A stretch of 64,000 nucleotides of DNA from positions 31,296 through 95,295 of the forward strand of contig DASYJX010000037.1 of NCBI GenBank assembly GCA_035996065.1, in the 5' to 3' direction. The notes below the pieces were generated by a model. It searched no databases. It had not been told where the DNA came from and saw only the letters and a program-made list of their open reading frames with translations. The position numbers and the translations under genes are program-made. The stretch's first letter is position 1, and every line of letters starts with the position of its first letter. Shown here one piece after another: positions 17,242 to 63,180 of the stretch. The stretch is from Steroidobacteraceae bacterium (GTDB lineage: Bacteria; Pseudomonadota; Gammaproteobacteria; Steroidobacterales; Steroidobacteraceae).

Positions 17242-17249
17242 GGGAATCA

Positions 17250-22722: not shown

Positions 22723-22751
22723 CGATTCGATGCGCATACACGAGACTTGCA

Positions 22752-26510: not shown

Positions 26511-26533
26511 ACTGAGGGCCTTAGAGCCAAACC

Positions 26534-27436
26534 ATGCAATCCGTGAAAAAAGCATTCTTCCGAGTCGATGGGCCCACCTGGCTGGTCGCCCTGGTTCTGT
26601 ATGGCGCGTGGGTGCTTTTGGTGTGGTTCAATGCCGTCTTGCCCTGGTGGATCATCATGCCGGTGGGCGCCTATCTGATCGCTTGGCACTTTTCGTTGCA
26701 GCATGAAGCCATTCATTCGTTTCGGGGAGTGCCCGCGTGGCTACGTTTCGCGGTGGTGTTTCCGCCGTTGGGTTTATGGTTTCCGTATCCGCTCTATCGA
26801 AAGAGTCATAGCACCCATCATCGCGACGTGAATTTAACCATCCCGGAAGTCGATACCGAGTCTTATTATGTGCTTCAGGCGGACTGGGAGCGCATGGGGA
26901 GATTCAAGCGGCATGTGCTGCTGTTCAATCAGACCTTGACCGGCCGTTTGCTGATCGGCCCCGTCCTGCGCCTGTGGACTCTCATCGCCAAGGAGACGCG
27001 CCGAGTACGGCAACGCGACTACAGCCATTTGCCCCATTGGGCCCTGCACGTTGTCGCGGTGGGAATTCTTTTCTGGTTCATCTCCCGAGTCTGCCGCTTT
27101 CCGTGGTGGCAGTACTGTCTGCTCGTTGCATACCCGGGCCTGAGTTTAGGATTGCTGCGCGCATTTACCGAGCATCGCGCGGCACAAGACTCTCAGGAGA
27201 GAACCGCATCCGTCGAGTCGAATGCATTATTCGGGATGCTGTACCTCTTTAACAACCTGCACGTGGCGCATCACTTGAAGCCCACCATGCCGTGGTACCA
27301 AATCCCGCGCTTTTATCGGGAAAATAAGCATGAGCTCTTGGCGAGCAACGGAAACTTCGTATATTCAGGATATACCGTGATTGCCCGGCGGTATTTTCTG
27401 ACCCCCGTATTCAGTCCCGTTCACCCGACGCTGTAG
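26534..27436 (+). CDS. Membrane fatty-acid desaturase/hydroxylase family protein (di-iron, three His boxes)
   Basis: His boxes HEAIH, HSTHH and HVAHH, with hydrophobic spans between them. 300 aa. Confidence 0.8.
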   Translation: MQSVKKAFFRVDGPTWLVALVLYGAWVLLVWFNAVLPWWIIMPVGAYLIAWHFSLQHEAIHSFRGVPAWLRFAVVFPPLGLWFPYPLYRKSHSTHHRDVNLTIPEVDTESYYVLQADWERMGRFKRHVLLFNQTLTGRLLIGPVLRLWTLIAKETRRVRQRDYSHLPHWALHVVAVGILFWFISRVCRFPWWQYCLLVAYPGLSLGLLRAFTEHRAAQDSQERTASVESNALFGMLYLFNNLHVAHHLKPTMPWYQIPRFYRENKHELLASNGNFVYSGYTVIARRYFLTPVFSPVHPTL

Positions 27437-27445
27437 GCCATCGCG

Positions 27446-39315: not shown

Positions 39316-41325
39316 TCAGCGCGTCGGTTGCACGTAGCGGTCCAACCACGCAGACATGCGCTCTGCGAGATCCTTGACGAAGCTGGGGCGCGTGAACACG
39401 TGATGTTGACCCGGGTAGATGACGAGCTGCGCGGGTACGCCCAAGGTCCGTAGTGCCTGGTACATCTGCTCACTGCCCATGACGGGGACGTTGAAGTCCT
39501 TCTCGCCGCCCAGGAACAAAGTCGGCGTGTGAATCCGATCGGCATGAAAGAACGGATAGGATACCTTGAGCCATAGTGCCGTGTTGCGCCACGGCGGGCC
39601 GAGCTCGTTGTTGTATTGAAGGACGTATTGATCGGTGCCGTACGTCGAGATTTGATTGCCGCTGCCCGCTCCGCTGATGGCGGCCTTGAAGCGGCCATCG
39701 CTCGCAATGGTGTAATCGGTCAGTATCCCGCCGTAGCTCCAGCCGCCGATCGCGAGCCGGTTCGGATCGGCGATTCCGCTGGCGACCAAATGATCGACAC
39801 CGGCCAGCAAATCTTCCACCTCCTTATGGCCCCAGTCCGCGAATATGGTTTTGGCGAAAGCGACGCCACGCCCGCTGCCGCCGCGATAATTGACGCGCAG
39901 AACGACGAATCCCTTGGCCGCAAACATCTGCGGCTCGAATTGGTAGCCATCGAGAACCAGCGAGTGCTCGTCCCCGCCGTTCGGTCCGCCGTGAATCCAC
40001 AATACCATGGGGTACTTGTGACCGGGCACAAAAGACGGCGGTTTGACGAGCAGCCCATGAATCTCGGTGCCGTCCTTATTCTTGAATCGAATGTCCTCGA
40101 CGGCGCCGAGCTGCAACTGGGCGAGAAACGCGTCGTTGTGCGAAGTGAGCTTGCGCAGTTGCCCCGCCTCGAGTGCATGCACTTCGGCCAGCGCGCCGTC
40201 GTTGGACTCGAGCAACGCAGTATGACCGGCCGCCGAGGACAGTGCGGAGACCAGGAATGGTCCCGCAGCGGTCTCTCGCGTGATGGCGCCGCCCGCCAAG
40301 TCCACTTGAGCCGCATAGCCGGTTGCGTCGTCCTCCACCGTGATCCTGATCGACGCCGAATCCGCTGCGAACGCGAAGGAAGTCACCGCCCGATCGAGCT
40401 TGTCGGCGAGCGGCCGGGATGCACCCCCGGCAGCCGGCACCACGGCAAGATGGTCCTGCATGTAGGCGTTGAACTTGGGCTCGAGTCCCTGCAGATACGC
40501 GATCAGCACACCGTCGGGACTCCACGCGAGCCTCTGCGTGTTCGGCGCAAAGGGACGCACGAGGCTGCGCGGCGTCGCGCCGGCCTTCGGTTCGATGACG
40601 TCGATCTCTTCCCGTCCGTCTCGATCAGCGCCTTGCTCGTGCGTCCGGATGAAGGCGATCCGCGCGCCGTCGGGAGACCATGCCGGCAGATCCTCGTTGA
40701 AGGCCTGATCGGTGGTTAGCTGTTCGATATGCTTGCTCTCGACATCCAACAAGTACAAATGTTGCCCGTGACCCGCGCCGATATATCCTTCTTCGTCCTG
40801 TTTGAAGTGCAGAGCGTCGATTACGATCGGCTTTGGTGCGGGGTTCGTATCGCCCGGCTGCATCGCGAAGGCGAAGCGCTTGCCGTCCGGAGCCCACGCG
40901 TATTCGCCGATGTCGCCGCTGACGCTGGTCAGCTGACGAGCGTTGCCGCCGCGCCGGTCCAACACCAGTATCTGGCTTTTCTCCGACCCTGCCGGTTTGG
41001 CGATGAACGCGAGATAGCCGCCGTCCGGGCTCCACTTCGGCTTGCCGGTGCCGTCCGCCGCAGCCGTCAGCGCCAGCCGCTGGCTGCCGTCCCAGCTCGC
41101 CATCCAGATCGCGCTGCGTGCCTCGTCGTCCTCGCGGACGTTCGTCGTCATCACGTAGGCCACCCATAGACCATCGGGCGAGACTTGGGGGTCGCTCACA
41201 TCCTGGACGTTGTAGAAATCGTCGGGTGTCAGCGTTCGGCGAGCGGTTGGCGCATCGGCGGCAATGCCGTCGGTCGCACAAAGGATCAGCAATGCATTGG
41301 CGGCAAGCGCATGCATTCGTTTCAT
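39316..41325 (-). CDS. S9-family serine peptidase (prolyl oligopeptidase/acylaminoacyl peptidase-like) with N-terminal beta-propeller
   Basis: Signal peptide MKRMHALAANALLILCATDGIAADA. Repeated SPDG propeller blades. Catalytic GGWSYGG, GEKDFNVP and YPGQHH. 669 aa. Confidence 0.88.
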   Translation of the reverse strand: MKRMHALAANALLILCATDGIAADAPTARRTLTPDDFYNVQDVSDPQVSPDGLWVAYVMTTNVREDDEARSAIWMASWDGSQRLALTAAADGTGKPKWSPDGGYLAFIAKPAGSEKSQILVLDRRGGNARQLTSVSGDIGEYAWAPDGKRFAFAMQPGDTNPAPKPIVIDALHFKQDEEGYIGAGHGQHLYLLDVESKHIEQLTTDQAFNEDLPAWSPDGARIAFIRTHEQGADRDGREEIDVIEPKAGATPRSLVRPFAPNTQRLAWSPDGVLIAYLQGLEPKFNAYMQDHLAVVPAAGGASRPLADKLDRAVTSFAFAADSASIRITVEDDATGYAAQVDLAGGAITRETAAGPFLVSALSSAAGHTALLESNDGALAEVHALEAGQLRKLTSHNDAFLAQLQLGAVEDIRFKNKDGTEIHGLLVKPPSFVPGHKYPMVLWIHGGPNGGDEHSLVLDGYQFEPQMFAAKGFVVLRVNYRGGSGRGVAFAKTIFADWGHKEVEDLLAGVDHLVASGIADPNRLAIGGWSYGGILTDYTIASDGRFKAAISGAGSGNQISTYGTDQYVLQYNNELGPPWRNTALWLKVSYPFFHADRIHTPTLFLGGEKDFNVPVMGSEQMYQALRTLGVPAQLVIYPGQHHVFTRPSFVKDLAERMSAWLDRYVQPTR

Positions 41326-41341: not shown

Positions 41342-43777
41342 TTATTCGTGTTTGCCCCATCGGTAACTGAGCCGCAGTCCGATCACCCGCGGCTCGTTGG
41401 TCGTCTCGCGGTGATCGTAGTTGGCGGTGTTGGTATAGATCACCGCATTCTTATCGAACAGATTGCTGACGTAAGCTTCGGCGCTCCAGCGATCACTCGG
41501 CGCCTGTACCCCCACGCGCAAGGTTGAAATGGCATAGGCCGGCTGCAGCGAGCGCCCGAAGCCGTGCCGGTCAACCACGCGCAGGTCGCTCCACATATCG
41601 CCCTTGTGCGCGATATCGTATTGCACGAAACCCTTGAGCGCCGGGCCTACCGGCCTTTCGTAACGCGCATTTGCGCTGAAACTGAAGTAGGGCACGAACG
41701 GGAGCCTCTCGCCCGGGACGACGATGAAATCGGCGTTCTGGAACGTGTTCGTAATGAGGTGAGAGTCGTTGTAGCTCCCGGAAATCTGTACGCTCAAGCC
41801 TTCGATGATCTGGTAGTCGATGTTCGACTCGGCGCCATAAATACGCGCGTTGCCCAGGTTTGCATTGAAGCCGCTCGGGCATATGGCGAGATCGAAGACC
41901 GGCGCTTGGTAGCCCTTCCAATTCATCAGATAAAAGGCTCCGTTCCACGTCATGCGTCCGTCCAAAAGCGCCGACTTCCAGCCGACTTCGAAGTTGTTCA
42001 ATGTGTCGGGCGCATAGCTCGCCGGCGCCCCTTTGCCATAACAGGTTGCGCCCAGACCGGAGTTGGCTCCGCCATCGCGGAAGCCTTGACTGAAAATCCC
42101 GTAGAGAAGCAGGTTCTTGCCGGCCTTGAAGTTGACGCCCGCCTTGGCGTTCACTTTATGAGAACCCCCCGAGTCGAAACTCGGCACTTTGGGATTCCAA
42201 AAATAGCCGGCGTATAGACTGCCGCTGGTGAAGCTCGACTTGTAATGTTGGACGCCTCCTTCGATGCTCCATCGATCCGTCAGATTCAAGGTGAGATCGG
42301 CGAATTCCGTGGTGTCCAAGTAGTCGAATCGCGACTTGTAGCTGTACCACTCGCTGGGCAGCGGCGACGCGCCGACGGTGTAATAACTGTTGTAACGTGC
42401 GAGGACGGATTGATAAGCAGCGCCCTGCGGCTGAAGACCCGGCATCGCGTAGAACAGCGAATAGGTATCCTTGGTCTTCTCCCAGTACAGACCGCTCAGC
42501 CACTGCAGCCGGCCGCCCGGTTTCGATTGCAAACGCAGCTCGTTCGACCAGCGCTGCGTATTGTTGTCGTAGACGTAGTACTGAGCCGGCACGTTGCACC
42601 CGCTGAATACGCCGCTGGACGAGTTCATGGGATCGGTCAAGCAAGCGTATGCCTGGATGTTCTCCGGCAAGAAACCGGCCACAGGCGAGTACTGGACATA
42701 CTCCGAGTATTCATTGACCTGGTGTATGGTCTGCTGCTGATAGGTGCTGGTGAAAACCAAGTCGGCGATGCCGACGTCGCCGTCAATGTGCAGGTCCAGC
42801 GACTTCACGTAGTCGCTGCCGTCCTCCGGTGCGAAGCGCGACACCTTGCGTTTGCCGTATTTGGGATCCTGGTCCCAGGCGCCGGCATGCCTTTGACTCT
42901 GGTAGCCCGCGGTCAGCACCGCGTTCCATTGGTCGTTGAAAATCTGTTTGACCGCCGCTCGCCCGCCGTCGATGTTTTGGGTGTTGTAATTGTTGCGGGC
43001 AAACTGCGCATTCGTCGACACCACGCCATTGACCCAGTCGCGCGTGGTGAGCAAGTTATCGATGAAGCCGCCGTCATGATTCGCGTACACGGATAGGCGA
43101 ACGGCCGACTTTCCTTCTACGATCGGCAGGTTCACGAAACCTTCGTAGGTGCTGTTGATTCCGCCGGAATGGATTTTGCCGGCGTCCGCATCGACGCCGG
43201 CGCTGAACTCATTCGGGTCCGGTTTATTCGTGATGATGCGAATGGCGCCCGACATCGAGCCGGCGCCGAACAGCGTCCCTTGCGGCCCGTTCAAAATCTC
43301 GATGCGTTCGATGTCGTACTCGTGCAAATCGGGAATACTGCCGAAAAAACTCATCGACATATCGTCGACGAAGAACCCCGTCGAGGACGTATTCACGACG
43401 TTCGGGTTGCTGCCGTCGGACACGCCTCGCATGAAGAACATCTGCGTGGCGGGGCCGGTGCTGATGAAGGAGACCGAGGGAGTCTTGGTCGCGTAGTCCT
43501 CAAACCGCGTAATCGCCAGGTTTTGCAGGTCCTTGGCCGTGAACACGTCGATGCTCTGCGGCACGTCCTGCAGATTTTCGGTGCGCTTGCGCGCGGTGAC
43601 GGTGATCTCTGCCAGGGAATCCGAAGCAGCGCCGGGGGCCGTGCTCGGCGCGGGCATCCCGTGCGCCGCACCGGCACCGTACACGACGGCGGCGACGGCG
43701 AGATTCAGCCTGGAACGCATGATCGCGGGACGGTGCGCTGCACGGGCGGGATACGACGCTGCCGCAGGATGCTTCAC
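41342..43777 (-). CDS. TonB-dependent receptor (module 3, distal copy)
   Basis: Up to 811 aa from GTG 43777; an alternative ATG lies at 43720. Plug motifs are LAEITVTARKRTENLQDVPQSIDVF and ERIEILNGPQGTLFGAGSMSG. The C-terminus reads ...LRLSYRWGKHE. Confidence 0.9.
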   Translation of the reverse strand: MKHPAAASYPARAAHRPAIMRSRLNLAVAAVVYGAGAAHGMPAPSTAPGAASDSLAEITVTARKRTENLQDVPQSIDVFTAKDLQNLAITRFEDYATKTPSVSFISTGPATQMFFMRGVSDGSNPNVVNTSSTGFFVDDMSMSFFGSIPDLHEYDIERIEILNGPQGTLFGAGSMSGAIRIITNKPDPNEFSAGVDADAGKIHSGGINSTYEGFVNLPIVEGKSAVRLSVYANHDGGFIDNLLTTRDWVNGVVSTNAQFARNNYNTQNIDGGRAAVKQIFNDQWNAVLTAGYQSQRHAGAWDQDPKYGKRKVSRFAPEDGSDYVKSLDLHIDGDVGIADLVFTSTYQQQTIHQVNEYSEYVQYSPVAGFLPENIQAYACLTDPMNSSSGVFSGCNVPAQYYVYDNNTQRWSNELRLQSKPGGRLQWLSGLYWEKTKDTYSLFYAMPGLQPQGAAYQSVLARYNSYYTVGASPLPSEWYSYKSRFDYLDTTEFADLTLNLTDRWSIEGGVQHYKSSFTSGSLYAGYFWNPKVPSFDSGGSHKVNAKAGVNFKAGKNLLLYGIFSQGFRDGGANSGLGATCYGKGAPASYAPDTLNNFEVGWKSALLDGRMTWNGAFYLMNWKGYQAPVFDLAICPSGFNANLGNARIYGAESNIDYQIIEGLSVQISGSYNDSHLITNTFQNADFIVVPGERLPFVPYFSFSANARYERPVGPALKGFVQYDIAHKGDMWSDLRVVDRHGFGRSLQPAYAISTLRVGVQAPSDRWSAEAYVSNLFDKNAVIYTNTANYDHRETTNEPRVIGLRLSYRWGKHE

Positions 43778-43786
43778 GATGCCGAG

Positions 43787-46261
43787 CTAGCCTCCGTTAC
43801 CCCATCGGTAGCTCATGCGCAGGCCGAACACGCGCGGTTCGTTGCGTGTCTGGCGCAGGTCGAAGTTGCCCTCGTTAGTGTAAATAATCGCATTCTTATT
43901 GGTGAGATTGGTGATGTAGAACTCGGATAGCCAGTGAGATTCAGCCTGATTGAGGCCAAGCCGCAGGTTCATGACCGAGTAACCCGGCTGCAGCACGCGG
44001 GGCAAGCCGTTGGAACCGTTCGATTGCAGGGAATTCCACATGTTGCCCTTGTGGGCGATGTCGAATTGAACGTATCCGTGCAGGCTCTCCTTGAGCGGCG
44101 CTTCGTAACGCGTGTCCCCGCTAAAACTCACGTACGGCACGTAGGGCAGGCGTTCCCCCGGGGTGACCTGAAAACTGGCATTTTCGAAGGTGTTGGTCAC
44201 CATGTGCGAATCGTTGTAGCTTGCCGAGAATTCCATGCTCAGAAATGAGGTCGCCTGATACTTGACGTAAGATTCCACCCCATAGACTCTGGCATCGCCA
44301 ATGTTGGCGTTGAAACTCGACGACAGGCAAATGCCTGGGTCGAATAACAGCGTCTGAAAATTCTTCCAGGGCATGTAGTAAACGGCGCCATTCCATATCA
44401 GATGACTGTCGAGCATCGTGGACTTCCAGCCGATCTCGTAGTTGGTCAAGGTGTCGGGCACGAACGTCGCCGGGGCGCCGTTCTTGGTGCAGTCGGCGGG
44501 CAGACCGCCGTTGACTCCGCCATCCCTGAATCCCTGCGCCGCGTCGGCATACACCAGCAGGCCGTCCAAGACCTTGTAACTGACGCCTACCTTGCTGTTC
44601 CACTTGTTGGACGAACCTCCATAGACGGCCGGCGTCTGCGGCTGGTACCAAAATCCCCCGAACACGGAGCTGGAGAAATTGGAGTGGAAGTGCACGGTGC
44701 CCGCCTCGACATGGAGCCTTGGCGTGATGTCGAAGGTGAAGTTGGCAAACTCCGTCGTTTGCAGGTAGTCGTTGCGAGCCACGTAGCTGTACCAATCATC
44801 GGGCTTCGGCGGCAGCGCCCCTTGGTTGTAATAATAGGCGGTAGTCGCTTGCCACGCCTGGCCGGCAGTCTGCAATCCGGGCATGTGAAAGTAGTCGCTG
44901 TAGGGGTCGCGGGTCTTTTCCCAGTAGACGCCGGCCAGCCAGTGAAAGCGTCCGCCTTCCTTCGATTGCAGTCGCAGCTCGTTGGACCAGCGCTCGGTGT
45001 GGTTGATGTAGTCGTAATACTGAATCGGCGGATTGCAGCCGCTGAAGCCCGTGCCGTTGATCGGATCCGTCAGGCAGGTATATGCCTGCTGTGATGTCGC
45101 GTTGGTCGAGCTGGGCGGGACCTTGTATTGGTTTATGTACTGCATGTACTCCGAATACTCGTTGACCCATCGGGTATCCTGGGCCCAATAGGTACCGGCG
45201 TAGACCAGATCGCCGATACCTACGTCGCCGTCGAGGTGAAAATCCAGCGTCTTTGTGTAGTACTGCTTGAACTCCGGCCCGAAGCGCACCACGTTGTTCC
45301 GCGGGAGCGTGCGCACGGGACCGTCAACGCCGCCGACGGTTGGATCCTCATCCCATGCGCCGTGCGTGAGCTGGCGCTGATAACTGTACGTCAGCGATGC
45401 CTTCCAACCGTCCGAGATCGTCTGTCCGAGCGCGATGCGGGCGCCGGTGACCTTCTCCACGTTGTAGTTCTTGCCGGCCCAAGCTGAATTGTCGGACACC
45501 GACCCGTTCACCCAGTGGCGGGTGGTCAAGAGATTGTTGATGAAGCCGCCGTGGTAGTCGCTGTAGGCGGAGATCCGCAACGCAGTCCAGTCGGCGATGA
45601 GGGGCAGGTTTACGAAACCTTCGATGGTGCCATTGTGAGTACCGCCGTCGATCTTGCCGACGTCGGCATCGACCCCGGCGCTGAATGCTTTCGGATCGGG
45701 CTTGTTCGTGATGAAGCGCAGGGCGCCCGCCATGGCGCCGGCACCGAACGTCGTTCCCTGCGGGCCGTTCAATACCTCGATGCGCTCGATGTCATAGAGA
45801 TGCAGATCCGGCGACGTGCCGAAATAATTCATCGACATGTCATCGAGCAGGAACAGTGTTGCGGCAGCGTTCGCGTAGTTCGGGTTGCTGCCGTCCGAGA
45901 CGCCGCGCATGACGAAAGTCTGCGTGCCGGGACCGGCACTGACGAACGAAATCGAAGGCGTCTTGGTGGCGTAGTCTTCGAATTGCGATATGCCCAGATT
46001 CTGCATGTCTTTGGCGGTGTAGACATCGATGCTCAGCGGCACGTCCTGCAGATTCTCGGTGCGCTTGCGCGCAGTGACGACGACCTCCTCGAGCGTCGTA
46101 TCGGCGGATGCACCCGCCGCTGCCGCTGCCGGCGCCGCATGCATCGCCGCCCCCGACAGCGCGGCGGCGATGGCTAGAGCCAGCGTGGAACTCGATCCGT
46201 GCGCAATCGCGCTCGGTCCGCCGCGCGGCATTTTCGCAGAACGCGCTGCAGTCGTGCGCAT
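43787..46261 (-). CDS. TonB-dependent receptor (module 3, proximal copy)
   Basis: From ORF 43787-46294 (GTG). I prefer ATG 46261, which is preceded by AAGGGGG. Plug motifs are LEEVVVTARKRTENLQDVPLSIDVY and ERIEVLNGPQGTTFGAGAMAG. It is collinear with 41342-43777. The C-terminus reads ...LRMSYRWGNGG. Confidence 0.9.
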   Translation of the reverse strand: MRTTAARSAKMPRGGPSAIAHGSSSTLALAIAAALSGAAMHAAPAAAAAGASADTTLEEVVVTARKRTENLQDVPLSIDVYTAKDMQNLGISQFEDYATKTPSISFVSAGPGTQTFVMRGVSDGSNPNYANAAATLFLLDDMSMNYFGTSPDLHLYDIERIEVLNGPQGTTFGAGAMAGALRFITNKPDPKAFSAGVDADVGKIDGGTHNGTIEGFVNLPLIADWTALRISAYSDYHGGFINNLLTTRHWVNGSVSDNSAWAGKNYNVEKVTGARIALGQTISDGWKASLTYSYQRQLTHGAWDEDPTVGGVDGPVRTLPRNNVVRFGPEFKQYYTKTLDFHLDGDVGIGDLVYAGTYWAQDTRWVNEYSEYMQYINQYKVPPSSTNATSQQAYTCLTDPINGTGFSGCNPPIQYYDYINHTERWSNELRLQSKEGGRFHWLAGVYWEKTRDPYSDYFHMPGLQTAGQAWQATTAYYYNQGALPPKPDDWYSYVARNDYLQTTEFANFTFDITPRLHVEAGTVHFHSNFSSSVFGGFWYQPQTPAVYGGSSNKWNSKVGVSYKVLDGLLVYADAAQGFRDGGVNGGLPADCTKNGAPATFVPDTLTNYEIGWKSTMLDSHLIWNGAVYYMPWKNFQTLLFDPGICLSSSFNANIGDARVYGVESYVKYQATSFLSMEFSASYNDSHMVTNTFENASFQVTPGERLPYVPYVSFSGDTRYEAPLKESLHGYVQFDIAHKGNMWNSLQSNGSNGLPRVLQPGYSVMNLRLGLNQAESHWLSEFYITNLTNKNAIIYTNEGNFDLRQTRNEPRVFGLRMSYRWGNGG

Positions 46262-46390
46262 CGCATCGCCCCCTTGTACCACTCCCGATGGCACGCGGAC
46301 GCATGCCGGTTCGGATCATGTCTTGCGAAGGCGATGCCTGTCAATGACCAACGCCCCACACGCTGATCGATCGTTCAATAGGCGAACGGG

Positions 46391-48391
46391 CTAGCTCGCC
46401 TCCCCGAAGCGCTCAATGCAACGTCCCAGGGCGCGCCGCAGGGGCTCGAGTTGCGGCTCGAAATGTTTCCAATAGCCGACGCCGGACGAGTACAAGGGTT
46501 GACGCACCTGCTCGGCGCTCGCGGTACGCACCGGCCGCTTGGTTTCATGAAATGCGAGGCATGCAGGTTCGAATTCGAGGCCGCAATGAGTCAACAGGCG
46601 ACGGATGTTCGTCTCCGGATCGCGTACCAGTTCTTCGTAATGCAAATGCAGCACCGTGCCGGGCAGCACGGCATCCCAATGATCCATCAGGCTTAGGTAA
46701 CACCGATAGTACCGGCCCAGGTCCTCGAGATCGTAACTGAAAGACTGACCTTCGGCGAAGTATTGCTTGAAGGTGCTGAAGCAGGCATCCATCGGGTGGC
46801 GGCGCACGTCAATGATGGTTGCGTTCGGCAGAATCGCGTAAATGAGGCCTACGTGACTGAAGTTATTCGGCATCTTGTCGATGAAGCGCGGCCGCCCGCT
46901 GCGGATCGGTGCTGTCTCCTCGATGTAGCGGCGGCCGAGAATCGCAAATTGCTCCAACGGAAGACCGCGGACGCTCTCGGGATACGCGTCGTGCTGCGGG
47001 TTTGCGTGATCGAACTCGCGCACGATGGTCAGCACATTCGGCAACTCGAAGGTCCCTTCGATGCTCGAGTGGCTGGCTAGGATCTGCTCCACCAGAGTCG
47101 AACCTGATCTCGGCAGTCCCACGACGAATATCGGCGATGGATCCGGAATCCCAGTACCCGCCCGTTGCGAAAAAAAGCCGACATCGAAGCAGTCGCGCAC
47201 CCGTCCAGTCTTGTTCTCGAACATCTCTATGTCAAAAGGCACGGTCTTGCGGCGCCGCCGATTGCCGCTTGCGTAGTGCTCGAACGCCGCGGCATAGTTC
47301 TTCCGGTGCTCGAACGCGCGCCCGAGGGCGAAATGCAGTTGCGCTTGGTCGGCATCCTCGCCGCCCTCGCCCTTCAAGAGCGCCTGCATTGCTGCAATCT
47401 CCGCATCGCTGAAGAAGTAGTTCTTGAGATCGGCCAGACTCCAGTACGCCTCGCCGAAACTCGGGTCGAGGAGCAGGCATGCCTTATAGGCGTCCTCACT
47501 CTCGCGACGATGGCCCAGCGTTTTGTGCACGTGGCCGATGGAGAGAGGCAAACGCACTTCGCGGGGATTGAGGCGCGCCGCCTCCTCGAAAGCCGGCAGC
47601 GCATCCGCCTGGCGCATTAGCCGGGCGCACACGCTTCCGAGCAACACCCAGTTCTGCGGGTTCTCCGACTCGATTTTTAGAAGGTGGCGAACCGCCGCCT
47701 CAGCTTCGGGGAGCCGCCCGAGGTCGACCATCGCCTGGCACAGGCCGCGCCAGGCAAGGGGAAGGTGGGCCGACTGCTTGAGAGCATGGCGCAGCAGCCG
47801 TAGGGCGTCATCTGCGCGACCGGCGGTAAGCGAAACCGCCGCAAGGCCGCACACCGCGGCCACATGGCTCGCGTCCTCCTGGAGGATCTCGCGAAAGATG
47901 AGTTCGGCTGCCTTGCGGTCCTCGGCCACGAGAGCGGCGGTCGCTTCGTCGATCCGGCGAGCGTGGGGATCGCACAGGCGCGCGCGCTCGTAGGCCACCC
48001 TGGCATCAGGGTATTTTTCGAGGTCGACGAGCACGTCGCCATAGGCAAGCCATGCTGCTTGGAGTGCAGGGACGGCCGCAACCACTCTCTGCAGTTCCCC
48101 TCGTGCGATCTCCAGCTGACCGGCACGGCGCCGGGCGCGCGCCAAGTCGGTGCGCGCTTGCCAGAACTGCGGTGCCGCGGCTACCGCCCGTTCCAGCGTC
48201 TCCATGGCAGCGGCTACCTTGTCTTGATCGAGGAGCGCAATCCCGAGCAGGCGCAGGCTGTTGACCTCGCCCGGCGCCGCCGCCTGAATCGCTCGCAGCT
48301 GCCGCTCAGCGGTTGCGGCACGCCCCATGCGGAGCGCGGCGAGTGCCTGTCCGTACGCGGCTCGAAGTTCATCTTGTGGCCGATTCTCCAC
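46391..48391 (-). CDS. TPR-repeat + sulfotransferase-domain protein, leaderless (copy 3)
   Basis: From ORF 46391-48616, whose first 75 codons overlap the upstream regulator gene. GTG 48391 gives 666 aa, matching the paralog lengths; ATG 48328 is an alternative. Contains IFVVGLPRSGSTLVEQILASH and FIDKMPNNFSHVGLIYAILPNATIIDVRR. Confidence 0.82.
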   Translation of the reverse strand: MENRPQDELRAAYGQALAALRMGRAATAERQLRAIQAAAPGEVNSLRLLGIALLDQDKVAAAMETLERAVAAAPQFWQARTDLARARRRAGQLEIARGELQRVVAAVPALQAAWLAYGDVLVDLEKYPDARVAYERARLCDPHARRIDEATAALVAEDRKAAELIFREILQEDASHVAAVCGLAAVSLTAGRADDALRLLRHALKQSAHLPLAWRGLCQAMVDLGRLPEAEAAVRHLLKIESENPQNWVLLGSVCARLMRQADALPAFEEAARLNPREVRLPLSIGHVHKTLGHRRESEDAYKACLLLDPSFGEAYWSLADLKNYFFSDAEIAAMQALLKGEGGEDADQAQLHFALGRAFEHRKNYAAAFEHYASGNRRRRKTVPFDIEMFENKTGRVRDCFDVGFFSQRAGTGIPDPSPIFVVGLPRSGSTLVEQILASHSSIEGTFELPNVLTIVREFDHANPQHDAYPESVRGLPLEQFAILGRRYIEETAPIRSGRPRFIDKMPNNFSHVGLIYAILPNATIIDVRRHPMDACFSTFKQYFAEGQSFSYDLEDLGRYYRCYLSLMDHWDAVLPGTVLHLHYEELVRDPETNIRRLLTHCGLEFEPACLAFHETKRPVRTASAEQVRQPLYSSGVGYWKHFEPQLEPLRRALGRCIERFGEAS

Positions 48392-48404: not shown

Positions 48405-49418
48405 TTACGGGGCGATCGACGGCACGTCGAGCATTTCGCGCAGCGGTGCGCGCTTATCCCCGATCTTGCGCTCGGCGCTCGGCGGATGCCCGAATTGCAT
48501 CCGGTAGCACTTTGAGAAATGCGGTGGCGACTGAAATCCGCATGCCGTCGTGATGTCCATGATGGGCATTGCGGTCTGCAGCAAGAGCTCGCGCGCGCGG
48601 CGCAGGCGCATCTCAAGATAGTAGTGCTTCGGCACGCAGTTCAAATCGCGCTTGAAGAGGCGCTCGATTTGACGGCGCGACAAGCCCGTGGCCTTGGCGA
48701 TTTTTTCCAGCGACAGCGGCTTCTCGATATTTTCTTCCATGAGTTGCGCCACCCGGATCAACCCGCGATGCGAAACGCCGACCTGTGCCCGCAGCGGAAC
48801 GTATTGGCGATCGGTGTCCTTGCGAACCCGATCGACGATGAACTGCTCGGAAACCAACTGCGAGATTCGGGGGCCCAGCTTCACCTGTATGAGATTCAGC
48901 ATGAGGTCGAGGGGCGCCGTGCCGCCGGAGCACGTAAAGCGATCGCGGTCGATGGTGAACAATTGATCGCTGATGCGAACCCTGGGAAACTCTTCACGCA
49001 GCGCCGAGAGATTCTCCCAGTGAATGGTGGCGCTGAAATTATCGAGCAAGCCGGCGCGCGCGAGTGCGTAGCCTCCGGTGCACAGGCCGCCCAGCGGCAC
49101 ACGCCGGTCCGCAAGCCGGCGAAGTGCGGTCAACAGCGCGGCCGATACCGCTTCGCGAACATTGATCCCGCCGCAGACAAACAGGATGTCGACCGCTCCT
49201 ACCTTGTCGAGAGCGCCGGTCGGCGACAGATTGAGTCCGCTGCTGGCGTCGGCCGCGCGGCCGTCCAAGCTGATGACGGACCACTCATAGACCTCTTTGC
49301 CCACCAGGCGATTCGCCATTCGCAGCGGTTCAAGCGCATTCGCAACGGCGATCAAGGAGTAGTTCGGCAGGGTCAGAAAGGCATACCTGCACTTGCGCAA
49401 CACGGCGGGCGATTCCAA
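48405..49418 (-). CDS. GlxA-family AraC-type transcriptional regulator (second GbdR/CdhR-like paralog)
   Basis: The maximal ORF 48405-49478 starts at a GTG. TTG 49418 is preceded by GGAGG and gives 337 aa, against 338 aa for the paralog. Contains YAFLTLPNYSLIAVANALEPLRMAN and a C-terminal AraC HTH (EKIAKATGLSRRQIERLFKR...GFQSPPHFSKCYR). Confidence 0.85.
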   Translation of the reverse strand: MESPAVLRKCRYAFLTLPNYSLIAVANALEPLRMANRLVGKEVYEWSVISLDGRAADASSGLNLSPTGALDKVGAVDILFVCGGINVREAVSAALLTALRRLADRRVPLGGLCTGGYALARAGLLDNFSATIHWENLSALREEFPRVRISDQLFTIDRDRFTCSGGTAPLDLMLNLIQVKLGPRISQLVSEQFIVDRVRKDTDRQYVPLRAQVGVSHRGLIRVAQLMEENIEKPLSLEKIAKATGLSRRQIERLFKRDLNCVPKHYYLEMRLRRARELLLQTAMPIMDITTACGFQSPPHFSKCYRMQFGHPPSAERKIGDKRAPLREMLDVPSIAP

Positions 49419-49661
49419 GGTGCCTCCGCAGGACGAAGAGCGTGAAGGTCGGACGCGGCCATTATGCCACCGACGCACGTCTCTTGTCTGTTTCCGACAT
49501 TTTTTTGTCGTTTTCTAAATGGTAACGAGGCCTGTCCCAGCCCCTCGTCCGCGTATTTGGGGATTCCCTGGCGCATTTCAATCAGGGACTGTCGCAATTG
49601 GCGTCTTGTTTGGCGGCCCGCTGGTTACACTGCGTCACGCATTTGCGTTGGGAGATTGAAC

Positions 49662-52121
49662 ATGAAAACTCATGCCCGCGTCGTCGTGATCGGCGGCGGC
49701 GTGGTAGGCGTCAGCACGCTTTATCACTTGGCCTTGAAAGGTTGGACCGATGCAGTCCTGCTCGAGCGCGCTGAGCTCACCGCCGGGTCGACGTGGCATG
49801 CCGCGGGGTTGCTGCCCCTTTTCAATATGAGCTATACGGTCGGCCAGCTGCACAAATATTCCGTGGATCTTTATAAGCGCTTACCCGCCGAAACCGGTCA
49901 AGACGTGAGCTTTCACGTCACCGGCAATTTGCGGCTCGCGACCTGCCGCGATCGCATGGACGAATACCAGAAGTACTGCGGCACGGCGAACACCATCGGC
50001 GTCCCCTTCCAAGTGATCGGTCCCAAGCAAGTCCGCGACCTATGGCCGCTGGTCGAACTCGGCGATGGCGCAGCCACCTCTAAGATCGTCGGAGCGCTTT
50101 ACCATCCAGATGACGGCCATATCGCGCCGGCGGATTTGACCATGGCGCTGCGCAAGGGTGCACGCAGCCGCGGCGCGGAAATCCGGGAGCAGACCGAGGT
50201 CACCGCGGTGACGCGCACTGCCTCGGGCGAGTGGCATCTGACGACGAACAAAGGACATATCGTGGCCGAGCACGTCGTTTGTGCCACCGGCAATTATGCG
50301 CGCCAGACGGGGCGCATGTTCGGCCTCAACGTGCCCTCCATTCCGGTCGAACACCAATACATCGTGTACGACGAGTCGCCTGAACTCAAAGCCTATCGTC
50401 AAGGCGGCGGCCGCGAGCTCGCGGTCCTGCGTGAATCGGATCAGTCCTATTATCTGCGCGAAGAGCGCATGGGATGGATATTGGGTCCCTATGAGGCGGG
50501 CGCCCCGGCCCGTTTCGCGGACGGCGTGCCCGAGTGGTTCGGCAAGAGCCTCTTCGAAGGCGACCTGGAGCGCTTGCTGCCGCACGTCGAGGCCGCGCAG
50601 CGGCGCGTGCCGTCGCTCGCCAACTGCGGCATCAAGGACATCGTGAACGGGCCTATCGCCTACACGCCGGACGGCAGTCCGCTGATTGGTCCGGCCTGGG
50701 GCGCACGGAATTTATGGCTCAACGAGGGACACAGCTTCGGCATCACCGCGGCGGGCGGCTCCGGCTGGCAGCTTGCCGAGTGGATAGTCGAAGGCGAGCC
50801 CGGCATCGACATGATGGCGGTCGATCCGCGCCGTTATGGACCCTACACCGGCAAGCGGTACGTGGTGCAAAAAAACGAGGAAACGTATCGCAACGTATTC
50901 GTCATCCATTATCCGGATGAAGAGCGTCCGGATGCACGTCCTGCCAAAACCAGCCCGGTGTACGACAAGCTCGCCCGCCTGGGGGCGGTGTTCGGACAAC
51001 GCTACGGCTGGGAGCGCGCCAATTGGTTTGCTCCGCCGGGAGTTCCGGCCAAGGACCAGTGGAGCTTCCGCCGTTCGAATTACTTCGAACATGTGGGCAA
51101 TGAAGCGCTGCGCTTGCGCCGGCATGTCGGAGTCATCGATCTTACGCCCTTCACCAAGCACGAAGTGACGGGACCGGGCGCGGAGAGCTGGCTCGATGGC
51201 CTCGTGGCCAACAAGGTGCCGACGAAGATCGGCCGGATCGCCCTCTGCCACGCCCTCACCCGCCGCGGCGGCATCCGCTCCGAGTTCACCATCACCAAGA
51301 TCGCCGATCAGCACTTCTACGTGGTGAGCGCGGGCGCCGCCGAGCGCTACGACAGCGACTACCTGCGCCAGGCGCTGCCGCAGGACGGCAGCGTCGCCTT
51401 GACAAATATCACCATGAGCCGCGGCTGCTACGTCCTCGCCGGACCGCGCTCGCGGGATGTGCTTGCAAAACTCGTCGATGCGCGCCTGGACAACGAAGCA
51501 TTTCCTTGGCTCACGGGCCAGGTCACCGAGGTTGGACTCGCCACCGAGGTATATTTATTGCGGGTGAACTTCGTCGGAGCGCTCGGCTGGGAGCTGCATT
51601 TCCCAATCGAATACGCGCATCACTTGTTCGACTCCTTGTTCGCTGCGGGCGCCGATTTCAACATCGGCATGGCGGGCATGCGCGCGATGGAGTCGCTGCG
51701 GCTCGAGAAGTCTTATCGCATGTGGGGCAGCGATCTGACCCCCGACTACACGCCCTACGAGGCGGGTCTTGACCGCTTCGTGCGCTTGAACAAGGGACCG
51801 TTCATCGGCAAGGAAGCCCTCGAAAAGCAGATCAAAGCGGGCGTTCCGCACCGCTTCATCACGTTCGAGGTTCACGGCGTTACGGATGCCGATCCGCTCG
51901 GCAACGAGCCGCTGTTCGATCTCAAAGGCAACATCGTCGGCCGCGCCACGGCGGGCTACTACGGGCACGCCTTGCGCAAGAGCCTGGGGTTGGGATACGT
52001 CAAGCCGGAATATGCGGCGGTCGGCTCTGACATGGAAATCGAGATCTTGGGGGAGCGCAAGCGTGCGACGGTGCTCGTCGATTCACCGTATGATCCTGAG
52101 AACAAGGAATTAAGGGCCTAA
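49662..52121 (+). CDS. FAD-dependent oxidoreductase fused to a GcvT-type domain (dimethylglycine/sarcosine dehydrogenase family), paralog 2
   Basis: From ORF 49464-52121, trimmed to ATG 49662 (RBS GGAGA). Contains [23 protein letters not shown] and GSTWHAAG. 819 aa. Confidence 0.9.
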
Positions 52122-52131
52122 CCGAAGCGCC

Positions 52132-53391
52132 ATGAGCAGGCAATCATTTTCGGGACTGTCGCTGATCTGGCACAGCCTCGCGCAGCACCGCGGATGGCAG
52201 AATCAATGGCGGAAGCCCGAGCCCAAAGCCAGCTACGATGCCGTCATCGTGGGCGGCGGCGGGCATGGTCTCGGATGCGCGTACTATCTTGCCAAGGAAC
52301 ACGGATTGACCAACATCGCCGTGCTCGAAAAGGGCTGGATCGGCGGCGGCAACACCGGCCGCAACACGACGATCATCCGCTCGAACTATTTATTCAACGA
52401 GAGCGCGGCGCTCTACGATCATGCGGTGAAGCTATGGGAGGACCTCTCGCAGGTTCTCAATTACAACGTGATGTTCTCGCCCCGCGGCGTCATGATGCTC
52501 GCGCATACGGTTCACGACATACAGGTGTTCAAGCGGCACGTGCACGCGAACCGCTGCAACGGGGTCGATAATGAATGGCTGGAGCCTGCCCAGGCCAAGA
52601 AGTTCTGCCCGCCGCTCAACATAGCGGACAATATCCGCTACCCGGTGCTGGGCGCGGCCCTGCAGAGGCGCGGCGGGACGGCTCGGCACGATGCGGTTGC
52701 ATGGGGCTACGCGCGAGCCGCCGACGCGCTCGGCGTCGACATCATCGAAAATTGCGAGGTTACGGGTATTCGGCGCGCCGCGAGCGGTGCGGTCGAGGCG
52801 CTGGAAACCACGCGCGGCGTGATCCGGTCGCCCAAGGTGGGAGTCTCCGCGGCCGGGCACACCAGCGTGATCATGCGCATGGCGGGCGTGAAGGTGCCTC
52901 TGGAGAGCTATCCGCTGCAGGCGTTGGTCTCCGAGCCGATCAAGCCTATTTTCCCGTGCGTCGTCATGTCCAACACCATTCACGCCTATATCAGCCAGTC
53001 GGATAAGGGGGAACTCGTCATCGGCGCAGGCACCGATGCCTACACCTCGTACACCCAGCGCGGCGCGTTGCACATCAATACGCATACCTTGGATGCGATC
53101 TGCGAACTGTTCCCGAACTTTCGCCGCTTGCGGATGCTGCGCAACTGGGGCGGCATCGTCGATGTGACGCCGGATCGCTCGCCCATCATTGCCAAGACGC
53201 AGGTCCCAGGGCTGTACGTCAATTGCGGTTGGGGGACCGGCGGATTCAAAGCCACGCCGGGCTCCGCGCACGTATTTGCATGGACCATTGCGCGCGACGA
53301 GCCGCATCCCATCAATGCGCCGTTCACCCTCGAGCGTTTCCGCGACGGCTACTTGATCGACGAGGCCGCGGCAGCAGCCGTCGCCCACTGA
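52132..53391 (+). CDS. soxB: Sarcosine oxidase beta subunit (operon 2)
   Basis: 419 aa. Contains [23 protein letters not shown]...[16 protein letters not shown]. Collinear with 34661-35908. Confidence 0.93.
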
Positions 53392-53403
53392 ACGGGACAC
53401 CCG

Positions 53404-53712
53404 ATGCTCCTCATTGTGTGCCCCTACTGCGGCAAACGCCCCGAAATCGAATTCAGCTACGGCGGCCAAGCCCATCTCAAGCGTCCGACTCAACCCTCGC
53501 AGCTTGACGATCAAGCGTGGGCGGATTTTTTGTACATGCGCACCAACACCAAGGGCGTGTATGCCGAACGCTGGCGCCATGCCCGCGGCTGCGGGCGGTT
53601 TTTCAATGCGCTGCGCGACACGACGACCGACCACTTCCTGGCCTTCTACAAGACGGGCGAAGCGCAACCTGCGCTGCCCGCAGAGCCCGCGCGCGGGCTC
53701 GCACATGAATAA
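53404..53712 (+). CDS. soxD: Sarcosine oxidase delta subunit (operon 2)
   Basis: 102 aa. Contains MLLIVCPYCGKRPEIEFSYGG and ERWRHARGCGRFFN. Confidence 0.9.
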   Translation: MLLIVCPYCGKRPEIEFSYGGQAHLKRPTQPSQLDDQAWADFLYMRTNTKGVYAERWRHARGCGRFFNALRDTTTDHFLAFYKTGEAQPALPAEPARGLAHE

Positions 53713-63086: not shown

Positions 63087-63180
63087 ATCGCCACTCCCCG
63101 TTGTCCATGTGTCTGTTCTTGGAATCGACTCAAATCCAACGCTACGGGCCGGCAACGCCGGGCTTCGTAGCAGCGCCGCC

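Follow-up and report, generated by a model that had tools for sequence, protein, structure and literature searches.

A TPR-sulfotransferase and a TonB-dependent receptor form an ancient gene pair, with one copy beside a sarcosine catabolic cluster in Steroidobacteraceae

In a 64,000-nucleotide stretch of DNA from a Steroidobacteraceae bacterium (the window), the gene for a TPR-sulfotransferase (ST3) is followed by the gene for a TonB-dependent receptor (R3). Such a pair is an ancient, widespread and co-evolving two-gene unit, and targeted literature searches turned up no account of it. On balance, we think it probable that ST3 and R3 are one copy of this cassette, that their transcription is split, and that the enzyme sulfates a polypeptide tied to the receptor. 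In brief, two genes, encoding a sulfotransferase (ST) and a TonB-dependent receptor of one class, appear to be inherited and to diverge as a unit, and here the unit would have lodged at the edge of a regulator/dimethylglycine/sarcosine catabolic cluster.

Results and discussion

Organization of the window

The first-pass annotation gave the minus-strand order as regulator, 13 nt, ST3, 129 nt, R3, 9 nt, R4, 16 nt and S9 peptidase, and both order and spacers are exact (Table 1). This cassette is inside an island for methylated-amine breakdown. Modules 1 and 2 represent another cassette subtype than ST3/R3. The modules have short internal spacers (18-129 nt), and each of the three modules is adjoined by an exported hydrolase (of S9, TAP-like or beta-lactamase-like kind). 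The window contains five TonB receptors, one of which (60051-63155) is of another class.

Table 1. Positions of the genes and predicted control elements in the window
Feature	Position	Strand	Basis or remark
GbdR-like regulator	48405-49418	-	Pfam HTH_18 + DJ-1_PfpI
ST3, TPR-sulfotransferase, 666 aa	46391-48391	-	Pfam, AF2, PDB sequence match
Palindromic operator (predicted), TTGAACGATCGATCAGC	46362-46378	-	aligned intergenic regions
Sigma-70-like promoter (predicted) of receptor operon, TTGACA, 18 nt, CATGAT	46315-46344	-	scan
R3, core ST-proximal TonB-dependent receptor	43787-46261	-	Plug + barrel domains
R4, accessory tandem paralogue of R3	41342-43777	-	56% identity to R3
S9 peptidase, exported, PD40 propeller, final gene of receptor operon	39316-41325	-	Pfam, signal peptide
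Module 1: R1 9239-11851, then ST1 11870-13873	9239-13873	+	order receptor, ST
Module 2: R2 14517-17159, then ST2 17223-19256	14517-19256	+	order receptor, ST
Exported beta-lactamase-like hydrolase, after module 2	~19283-21097		
Dimethylglycine-dehydrogenase-like (DMGDH) gene and sarcosine oxidase soxB, soxD, soxA	49464-56707	+	

Conservation and co-divergence of the pair

The ST family is large: 5019 homologues were found at E<=1e-20, and the C-terminal 367 residues of ST3 match 12,854 clusters (50% identity) at E<=1e-30. We compared 80 genome loci from Steroidobacteraceae, Woeseiaceae, Lysobacterales, Caulobacter, Kordiimonas, Colwellia and SAR86. Two gene families alone recur throughout, the ST (in 83 loci) and the receptor (in 78 loci). 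Proximity was counted in the 66 related loci with full flanks; a receptor of the same class lies within 500 bp of the ST in 45 of these and within 3 kb in 62, leaving ~6% with no receptor within 3 kb. Within 3 kb of an ST, genes of the receptor class have a density of 1.19 per 10 kb, against 0.09 per 10 kb in the remainder of those loci, a 13-fold difference that holds for this class and not for all TonB receptors, because the receptor HMM detects only this class (it misses the gene at 60051-63155). Across the loci, the pair has no conserved companion among small ORFs, exporters or inner-membrane transporters, and no conserved precursor peptide, NRPS or maturation protease was found beside it.

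The adjacency of ST and receptor is thus far above chance, and a functional link is strongly supported. The first-pass annotation had proposed that the linkage is functional rather than accidental, and this view is borne out by its maintenance across Gamma- and Alphaproteobacteria, by co-divergence and by purifying selection. Synteny in relatives places a receptor near the ST in most loci, and evolutionary distances between STs correlate with those between partner receptors (Mantel r = 0.94; maximum 0.15 in 999 permutations). The sample for this correlation includes close orthologues, and co-divergence would also be expected of any gene pair that stays together in a single operon.

Gene order tracks the ST clade. 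The ST precedes the receptor in 13 of 14 loci of the ST3 type, and the receptor precedes the ST in all five loci of the ST1/2 type, including those of Colwellia and Cellvibrionaceae. Because Steroidobacteraceae fall in several ST clades, these clades represent paralogous subtypes, not taxa. Co-divergence and clade-specific order together indicate that the three modules are old paralogous subtypes of the whole pair.

Sequence identities follow the same division. ST1 and ST2 are 62.5% identical, and ST3 is 39-40% identical to either. To call ST3 the more diverged copy, as had been done, is nevertheless misleading, given more than 100 clusters of orthologues at 77-93% identity. Its dN/dS (0.09-0.12) argues that ST3 is no decaying copy; that of R3 is 0.12-0.22. 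As previously annotated, R3 and R4 are paralogs (56% identity) of a different subtype from R1 and R2 (51% identical to each other; 27-28% across subtypes). In orthologous loci, the ST-adjacent receptor is 69-77% identical to R3, and R3-type receptors always accompany ST3-type enzymes.

The enzyme, the receptors and the putative client

ST3 comprises TPRs and a Sulfotransfer_3 domain (Pfam, E 7.6e-50). About nine TPR pairs (residues 4-310) are followed by a helical linker containing AYWSLADLK and by a PAPS sulfotransferase domain similar to those of tyrosylprotein sulfotransferases (TPSTs; residues 420-661). The motifs quoted in the earlier annotation, IFVVGLPRSGSTLVEQILASH and YWSLADLK, are both present; the PAPS loop reads GLPRSGST, and DKMPNNF aligns with NKDP of TPST. 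At the position that we take to be the catalytic base of TPST, the aligned ST3 residue is Gly, not Glu, and an invariant Glu occurs one residue earlier. The GTG start of ST3 is supported by conservation of the N-terminal 21 residues among orthologues. An AF2 model was obtained with a pLDDT of 88.8. When the catalytic domain alone was modeled, the top 13 Foldseek matches were all TPST1/2 (TM 0.62-0.73), with the 'activating' sulfotransferases CurM/OLS as the next-best fold matches, and the PDB sequence match was likewise to TPST (E 1.3e-6). In a full-length structure search, SPINDLY (SPY) and OGT were at the top. A hydrophobic N-terminal segment is absent from ST3, as is a signal peptide from 86 of 88 members of the TPR-sulfotransferase family. 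By sequence and model, ST3 is therefore predicted to be a cytoplasmic enzyme whose catalytic domain, nearest to those of tyrosylprotein sulfotransferases, lies behind an OGT-like TPR superhelix.

R3 carries Plug and TonB barrel domains (Pfam) and the N-terminal motif LEEVVVTARKRTENLQDVP, and starts at an ATG with an AAGGGGG Shine-Dalgarno-like site. For R4, only the Plug model passed in Pfam, yet the protein aligns with R3 over 787 residues. Among relatives, R4 has an orthologue only in loci L002 and L004. The S9 peptidase (prolyl-oligopeptidase family, 153 bits) follows the receptor again in L001, L003, L004 and L009. R4 and this exported peptidase are additions to the cassette in this genome. 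The ST-linked receptors, the only ones sampled, all have an acidic Tyr motif, D-x-[ST]-x-Y, that is invariant among them and precedes a Tyr-rich stretch; this motif is in line with a role of the enzyme centered on the receptor, but could be purely structural.

We suggest that cytoplasmic ST3 would use PAPS to O-sulfate tyrosine or another hydroxyl of an extended polypeptide held in the TPR groove. Because no gene other than that of the receptor accompanies the ST constantly, and metabolic neighbors vary, the task of the enzyme is presumably tied to the receptor and not to a local pathway. We therefore favor as putative client a polypeptide tied to the receptor. The likeliest single candidate, which we advance tentatively, is the receptor precursor while still unfolded and not yet exported; an imported peptide cargo comes next. 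To our knowledge, neither sulfation of a bacterial outer-membrane protein nor Sec-dependent export of a sulfated chain has a precedent.

It is possible, though we consider it rather unlikely, that the cassette instead processes cargo, in keeping with the usual logic of TonB-receptor loci. The receptor would import a nitrogen-rich or peptidic nutrient, the exported hydrolases adjoining all three modules would trim it in the periplasm, and the ST would act on the product, for example by activating a hydroxyl as a leaving group or by detoxifying or trapping the compound. Amidohydrolases and S9/S15 peptidases are indeed the commonest flanking families, genes for amine or betaine catabolism lie within 8 kb in 38 of the 80 loci, and the fold matches to CurM/OLS are in line with an activating role. 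In one clade, a small Asp/Asn beta-hydroxylase joins the pair, which fits a hydroxylate-then-sulfate idea in PMC2938197. However, the absence of a conserved inner-membrane transporter is difficult to accommodate, PAPS would be spent on a nutrient without obvious catabolic logic, and a small molecule would not need a TPR superhelix of ~300 residues. Moreover, the neighbors are highly variable (122 flanking proteins match 134 different Pfam families), in contrast to the enzyme, which is conserved from one ST subtype to another, polar residues of the TPRs included.

Transcription and the GbdR-like regulator

The regulator has a DJ-1/PfpI-type domain and an AraC HTH. With 404 bits on the NCBIfam GbdR model, it misses the equivalog cutoff of 480 and is thus classed as GbdR-like, not as a GbdR equivalog. 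It is the divergent partner of a DMGDH-soxBDAG operon (~49.5-57 kb), an arrangement also present in L001-L004, L006 and L011. Nine of 10 close relatives have an ST3-type cassette next to this regulator/DMGDH/soxBDAG cluster, and the arrangement takes at least three forms.

Transcription of the cassette is probably split. The 13-nt gap leaves no space for an ST3 promoter, and ST3 would thus depend on readthrough from the regulator gene upstream of it, a role that soxG would take in relatives. R3, R4 and the S9 peptidase would be driven by their own promoter, controlled via the palindromic operator by some regulator. The promoter scan gave 10 of 12 matches, and both hexamers are conserved in L001, L002, L003, L004 and L006. 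The operator, with core TGAACGATCGATCA (46364-46377), precedes the predicted transcription start by ~62 bp. The window has no second copy, and each orthologous locus likewise has a single one, invariably located between ST and receptor. The operator does not resemble conserved blocks of the regulator/DMGDH intergenic region. GbdR/CdhR-type sites are direct repeats (PMC5806209), and none of the GGTCGC/GCCGC type were recognized at the receptor promoter.

These observations bear on the reading offered by the first-pass annotation, in which one ST lineage was re-partnered by local rearrangement and receptor replacement, and module 3 was placed directly under a quaternary-amine-type (GbdR-like) regulator. 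The three modules do differ in gene order and receptor subtype. However, co-divergence, an order that is clade-specific across distant taxa, and the constant company of R3-type receptors and ST3-type enzymes do not fit local re-partnering of one enzyme. Regarding regulation, the persistence of the cassette by the regulator/sox cluster and the short gap before ST3 stand in favor; against it, the regulator diverges toward DMGDH-sox, and the receptor operon has a conserved promoter and operator of its own, unlike GbdR sites. Control of the cassette by the GbdR-like regulator is putative and unproven, and the combined reading is improbable.

Related systems

Animal TPST1/2, the best sequence and fold matches of ST3, and RaxST of Xanthomonas oryzae (likened by description) share with ST3 the PF13469 family and a PAPS loop of the form GxPRSG(S/T)T, but lack its TPR domain. 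TPSTs are Golgi-lumenal, unlike ST3. RaxST, like ST3, is cytoplasmic, and the polypeptide that it modifies is exported afterwards (PMC4646787); its gene is grouped with raxX, which encodes the substrate, and with a peptidase-exporter gene (raxSTAB), and no such genes were found at ST3-family loci. OGT and SPY share the architecture of ST3, in that an N-terminal TPR superhelix feeds a C-terminal transferase acting on protein side-chain hydroxyls. Their catalytic domain is an unrelated glycosyltransferase, however, and the resemblance is architectural and TPR-driven. The regulator has the two-domain architecture of GbdR/CdhR/SouR of Pseudomonas aeruginosa, and, as in that family, its gene is divergent to a catabolic operon for methylated amines.

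Methanobactin loci combine a TonB-dependent transporter, MbnT, with a sulfotransferase, MbnS. This pairing, the sulfation of the secreted RaxX peptide by RaxST (PMC4646787), and predictions of receptor-linked peptide-modifying neighborhoods by Iyer et al. 2010 (PMC2938197) could suggest that the product is a secreted sulfated ligand. A peptide or amino-acid-derived compound would be exported, bind a target outside and be retaken by the paired receptor, as a siderophore-, chalkophore- or signal-like molecule. We regard this as quite improbable. At Mbn loci, a precursor peptide is accompanied by maturation enzymes and an exporter, but the pair described here has no conserved precursor peptide, NRPS, maturation protease or exporter beside it; the short module spacers also argue against such a ligand. 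Iyer et al. place a TonB-type receptor gene beside cytoplasmic homologues of protein-modifying enzymes and note beta-hydroxylase and sulfotransferase combinations, to which the clade with an Asp/Asn beta-hydroxylase beside the pair corresponds. Their neighborhoods center on JmjC/2OG dioxygenases, tryptophan halogenases and SapC, unlike those reported here, and the text retrieved from that paper describes no TPR-sulfotransferase/receptor pair.

Accidental adjacency or hitch-hiking of a neighbor, which might be imagined in taxa that carry many TonB receptors (five in the window), is refuted by the local enrichment, by conservation across two proteobacterial classes, by the co-divergence of the pair and by dN/dS values of about 0.1-0.2.

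The sulfotransferase and receptor genes of module 3

The TPR-sulfotransferase and TonB-dependent receptor genes of the window's third module constitute a conserved, co-evolving enzyme-receptor pair built from known kinds of parts. Module 3 occupies the minus strand, and the first-pass annotation had given its gene order and spacers exactly to the base (see the table). Its sulfotransferase (ST3) and receptors (R3 and R4) have plus-strand counterparts in modules 1 and 2, which consist of R1-ST1 and R2-ST2. ST1 and ST2 share 62.5% identity, and ST3 is 39-40% identical to either; among the receptors, R1/R2 are 51% identical, R3/R4 are 56% identical (over 787 residues), and identities across subtypes are 27-28%. 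These values agree with the earlier impression that ST3 is the more diverged enzyme and that R3 and R4 are paralogues belonging to a separate receptor subtype.

In Pfam searches, ST3 matches TPRs and Sulfotransfer_3 (170.6 bits, cutoff 27). Its GTG start is supported by the 21 residues ahead of the first Met, which are kept in orthologues. R3 matches Plug (63 bits) and barrel (86 bits) models, and R4 passes the threshold for Plug only (59 bits); signal peptides and an N-terminal LEEVVVTARKR motif are also present, and both proteins are assigned to the TonB-dependent receptors. No specific NCBIfam model exists for the sulfotransferases or the receptors, and comparison of R3 with the PDB gave plug-level matches only. 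The regulator adjoining ST3 has DJ-1/PfpI and AraC HTH domains, and is classified as GbdR-like because its score on the GbdR equivalog model NF052371 (404.2 bits) lies under the cutoff of 480.

The last gene of the module encodes a protein with a signal peptide, an N-terminal PD40 propeller (65.6 bits) and a Peptidase_S9 domain (153 bits), and these matches assign it to the S9 prolyl-oligopeptidase family. More specific assignments were rejected on NCBIfam scores, both for the lasso-peptide isopeptidase Atxe2 (182.9 bits, cutoff 400) and for Dpp5 (237.8 bits, equivalog cutoff 900). A Pfam scan detected no lasso-peptide families among the genes of the window.

Features of the window discussed in the text
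Feature	Position	Strand	Remarks
GbdR-like regulator	48405-49418	-	13-nt spacer, then ST3
TPR-sulfotransferase ST3	46391-48391	-	129-nt spacer, then R3
Receptor R3	43787-46261	-	9-nt spacer, then R4
Receptor R4	41342-43777	-	16-nt spacer, then S9 peptidase
S9 peptidase	39316-41325	-	last gene in module 3 order
Sigma-70-like promoter, TTGACA, 18 nt, CATGAT	46344-46315	-	in the ST3-R3 spacer
Palindrome TTGAACGnTCGATCAGC	46362-46378	-	about 20 bp upstream of the -35 hexamer of the receptor-operon promoter
Acidic Tyr motif NEYSEYMQYINQY	R3, about residues 368-380; window, about 45120-45160	-	from alignment
Acidic Tyr motif GDYTNYARGVFADYYQCY	R2, about residues 383-400		from alignment of 65 receptors
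Inverted repeat CGACA-N6-TGTCG	49495-49510	+	in the regulator/DMGDH intergenic region
Unrelated receptor	60051-63155		overlooked by the receptor HMM
Choline-O-sulfate utilisation cluster	25416-30279	+	includes choline sulfatase
Rfam PYLIS_3 match	58502-58598	+	39.1 bits, gathering score 38
MttB-family ORF	57431-58999		uninterrupted; contains the PYLIS_3 match
Second GbdR-like regulator	22752-23768		divergent to an MttB-family gene
Region around the second regulator	21111-25650		aromatic-amino-acid-lyase-family ORF called from 23470

Distribution and co-divergence of the pair

A genome scan that used one genome per species yielded 590 confirmed relatives, and the best 80 of these 590 loci were analyzed. 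They derive from Steroidobacteraceae, Woeseiaceae, Lysobacterales, Caulobacter, Hellea, Kordiimonas, Emcibacter, Colwellia, SAR86, Haliea, Porticoccaceae and Cellvibrionaceae, and cultured carriers of the pair are found in Caulobacter, Colwellia and Kordiimonas. Gene calling and all-against-all clustering revealed only two pervasive families: sulfotransferase genes occur in 83 loci and receptor genes in 78, against 17 for the next family. For the 66 sulfotransferases flanked by 3 kb or more of sequence on both sides, a receptor is present within 500 bp in 45 cases, within 1.5 kb in 51 and within 3 kb in 62. Near the enzyme there are 1.19 receptors per 10 kb, versus 0.09 per 10 kb further out, and these counts concern only the class that our receptor HMM detects, to which the unrelated receptor of the window does not belong. 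With a threshold of E<=1e-30, the C-terminal 367 residues of ST3 retrieve 12,854 clusters (50% identity); most are proteins of about 665 residues with the same layout.

Distance matrices of sulfotransferases and receptors from 65 pairs correlate with r = 0.94 (maximum of 0.15 in 999 permutations), a value that is partly expected for any genes kept together and is inflated by close orthologues. Sulfotransferase clades correspond one-to-one with receptor clades and with gene order: the enzyme gene precedes the receptor gene in 13 of 14 loci of the ST3 type, and follows it in all five loci of the ST1/ST2 type, which the window shares with Colwellia, a Cellvibrionaceae MAG and another gammaproteobacterial MAG. 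Because Steroidobacteraceae fall in several clades, the clades represent paralogous subtypes and not the species phylogeny. Judged by clade and gene order, the seemingly inverted module 3 represents another subtype of this cassette, and an old one. The first-pass annotation had proposed that the association survived independent rearrangements and receptor replacement. That history is wrong, since enzyme and receptor co-diverge and gene order follows clade. Its broader claim, that the linkage is functional and not accidental, is borne out by the conserved, co-evolving pair.

ST3 belongs to a conserved orthologue group, with more than 100 clusters (90% identity clustering) at 77-93% identity. 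Long contigs carrying orthologues preserve the order sulfotransferase, one or two receptors and, often, S9 peptidase. R3 is the constant, enzyme-proximal receptor (69-77% identity with its counterparts in orthologous loci), and R4 is an accessory paralogue present in some loci only. In comparisons with three orthologues, ST3 has a dN/dS of 0.09-0.12 and R3 one of 0.12-0.22. The ST3-type cassette also keeps its association with the regulator, dimethylglycine dehydrogenase (DMGDH) and sarcosine oxidase (sox) genes, in varying arrangements: it directly follows soxG on the same strand in loci L001 and L002, directly follows the regulator in the window and in L004, L005 and L006, and follows the regulator with opposite-strand genes between in L003 and L011. 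Linkage to sox genes is kept in 9 of 10 close relatives.

Several variants of the cassette were also encountered. Fused gene calls that join sulfotransferase and receptor (TPR-Sulfotransfer_3-Plug-barrel; proteins P0131 and P0132, and positions 7833-11756 of L015) probably reflect read-through or sequencing error, because the receptor needs an N-terminal signal peptide. Other family proteins, including P0121-P0130, are 1,000-2,800 amino acids long and contain two to six tandem TPR-sulfotransferase units. In one sulfotransferase clade only, an Asp/Asn beta-hydroxylase of about 190 amino acids (PF05118) and a 308-amino-acid protein lie between or beside enzyme and receptor (for example, in L026, L029, L035, L037, L040, L046, L059, L065 and L073, from Woeseiaceae, Azophilus and others); the 308-amino-acid protein has no match in Pfam, NCBIfam or the PDB.

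A TPST-like enzyme with TPRs

An AlphaFold2 model of ST3 (pLDDT 88.8) predicts about nine TPR pairs (residues 4-310), a helical linker bearing the invariant AYWSLA(D/N)LK block, and an alpha/beta sulfotransferase domain (residues 420-661). The full-length fold search was led by SPINDLY and O-GlcNAc transferase, which are TPR-plus-transferase enzymes that modify proteins. This search was swamped by TPR proteins, and the catalytic domain was therefore modelled alone (pLDDT 86.6). The top 13 Foldseek matches of the domain are then TPST1/2 and a tick TPST (TM 0.62-0.73, E about 3e-10), with CurM/OLS sulfotransferases next; the match of ST3 to TPST in sequence has E 1.3e-6. The PAPS loop GLPRSGST, invariant in ST1, ST2, ST3 and 43 orthologues, aligns with GMPRSGTT of TPST, and invariant K506 (DKMPNNF) aligns with NKDP. 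The EET site of TPST aligns with E-G-T, and the invariant E445 is offset from it by one residue, beside a three-residue gap. The catalytic residues of TPST2 are Lys K158 and the Glu base E99, and the place of the catalytic Glu in ST3 is ambiguous by one residue. By domain, motif and predicted fold, the enzyme is a TPST-like PAPS-dependent sulfotransferase (PF13469).

Because an N-terminal hydrophobic segment is missing in 86 of 88 family members, these enzymes should act in the cytoplasm, the site of PAPS synthesis. Polar residues of the TPRs do not vary even between subtypes of only 40% identity, which suggests that a conserved partner is bound there.

Possible clients of the sulfotransferase

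The genes that flank the pair are heterogeneous, with 122 flanking proteins distributed over 134 Pfam families. Among the recurring families are amidohydrolases, S9/S15 peptidases, Asp/Asn beta-hydroxylase, DAO/sarcosine-oxidase-type enzymes, MttB and BCCT. At least one amine/betaine catabolic family lies within 8 kb in 38 of the 80 best loci, a count taken without a genome-wide baseline. Since the receptor is the only constant partner, we infer that the role of the enzyme is tied to it.

An acidic Tyr motif, D-[YAT]-[ST]-x-Y followed by a Tyr-rich stretch, is present in the 65 sulfotransferase-linked receptors, and looks like a TPST acceptor site for tyrosine sulfation. Its Asp is conserved in 100% and its second Tyr in 98% of these receptors, and the sampled receptors that are not nearest a sulfotransferase are only second receptors of the same modules. 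We tentatively consider that the client could be the receptor precursor. A more specific proposal, which we regard as rather unlikely as it stands, is that each enzyme sulfates its own partner receptor post-translationally, on Tyr of the acidic motif, before Sec export. In the cytoplasm, the unfolded precursor would lie in the TPR groove, the tyrosines of D-Y-[ST]-x-Y and the Tyr-rich stretch would be sulfated there, and the exported receptor would carry a permanently anionic, aromatic binding site. Betaines, choline derivatives, polyamines, basic peptides and N-methylated peptides are examples of the organic cations that such a site would suit. Sulfation of the receptor would explain both the recurrence of the pair in amine/betaine catabolic islands and why no further gene is constant. 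If true, the receptor would be the first bacterial outer-membrane transporter with sulfotyrosine, matured by a dedicated one-enzyme, one-receptor system.

The client may instead be a peptide or amine cargo imported through the receptor, a reading to which we give slightly less credence than to a receptor precursor. An exported hydrolase adjoins each of the three modules of the window. A role in producing a secreted sulfated ligand appears improbable. The 85 loci and the window contain no conserved exporter, inner-membrane transporter, small ORF or precursor peptide. The remaining probability belongs to some other client or role.

Promoters and regulation

The spacers between regulator and ST3 (13 nt) and between soxG and the sulfotransferase in relatives (60-70 nt) are too short for a separate sulfotransferase promoter, and the enzyme is presumably co-transcribed with the upstream gene. 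The receptor operon has a predicted sigma-70-like promoter of its own. This promoter and the palindrome TTGAACGnTCGATCAGC upstream of it are both kept in L001-L004 and L006, and L008 has the palindrome alone. Each orthologous locus has a single copy of the palindrome, at the same site just past the sulfotransferase stop codon. Within the window the palindrome is found only at 46364-46377, and three-mismatch matches are at chance level.

CdhR/GbdR sites are described as GGTCGC/GCCGC direct repeats (PMC5806209), and the R3 promoter palindrome differs from these half-sites in a comparison made without a position matrix. An orthologue alignment, in which the window was represented by L004 (whose ST3 protein is identical), revealed no recognizable motif common to the R3 promoter and the regulator/DMGDH intergenic region. 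The first-pass annotation had placed module 3 under the GbdR-like regulator. The adjoining position is real, but the receptors have their own promoter and a palindrome unlike GbdR-type sites, and their control by this regulator is unproven.

In the regulator/DMGDH intergenic region itself, the inverted repeat CGACA-N6-TGTCG, which is kept in L001-L004 and was also flagged as terminator-like by a scan, and a TGTCGCAATTGGCGTC block are candidate binding sites for the regulator. The more distant ST3-type loci L007, L008, L011 and L012 have a different, AT-rich palindrome, roughly TATAYGGCCRTATAA, between enzyme and receptor and just upstream of a TTGAC box. This difference suggests a swap of the regulator with retention of the cassette.

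Relation to known systems

In soil and marine Proteobacteria, scarce nutrients are taken up with high affinity mainly through TonB-dependent receptors, and the ligands of most are, to our knowledge, unknown. Methanobactin loci also combine a transporter with a sulfotransferase, but include a full biosynthetic set that the present cassette lacks. OGT and SPY resemble the sulfotransferase in architecture only. A sulfated-peptide system of the RaxST/RaxX type is ruled out, because the adjacent precursor peptide gene and the peptidase-containing ABC exporter of that system are not conserved in the 85 loci and the window. Passages of Iyer et al. 2010 (PMC2938197) predict receptor-linked peptide-modifying neighbourhoods as well as combinations of beta-hydroxylase and sulfotransferase, and the TPR-sulfotransferase/receptor pair is absent from those passages. 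We found no description of the cassette in NCBIfam or in the literature covered, which included few papers from subscription journals.

The family comprises at least about 12,800 clusters (50% identity) of TPST-like TPR-sulfotransferases, predicted to be cytoplasmic and almost always encoded beside one co-diverging receptor class. Whatever the client, bacterial protein or peptide sulfation would gain a role well beyond the single RaxST/RaxX case; were it the receptor, the pair would represent a new kind of outer-membrane protein maturation.

The surrounding catabolic island

The whole window forms an island for the catabolism of methylated amines, and the names of homologues point to Steroidobacteraceae as its origin. 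Besides two GbdR-like regulators and two MttB-family methyltransferases, it carries two sarcosine oxidase sets, two dimethylglycine-dehydrogenase-like genes and a choline sulfatase cluster; a GbcA-like Rieske oxygenase, an enolase-superfamily gene and a GMC oxidoreductase are also present. The DMGDH-soxBDAG operon diverges from the regulator adjoining ST3, and relatives show the same divergent pair.

In the choline-O-sulfate utilisation cluster, a choline sulfatase (Sulfatase and Choline_sulf_C domains) is accompanied by an MFS transporter, a fatty-acid-desaturase-like protein and a periplasmic binding protein (Phosphonate-bd), so that a sulfate-ester hydrolase gene lies 10-17 kb from three sulfotransferase genes. 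The choline sulfatase gene could point to choline sulfotransferase activity; the TPST-like fold, the TPR domain and the many family loci unrelated to choline led us to reject this as the principal reading.

PYLIS_3 is the pyrrolysine insertion element of mttB. Its match in the window barely exceeds the gathering score and falls inside an uninterrupted ORF, and probably reflects coding-sequence homology in a non-pyrrolysine MttB.

The second GbdR-like regulator is 40% identical to the first. It is followed by an aromatic-amino-acid-lyase-family gene whose called ORF overlaps the 3' end of the regulator gene, and whose true start is probably further downstream. Our guess from these gene assignments is that the region could be a betaine (perhaps histidine-betaine) catabolic unit.
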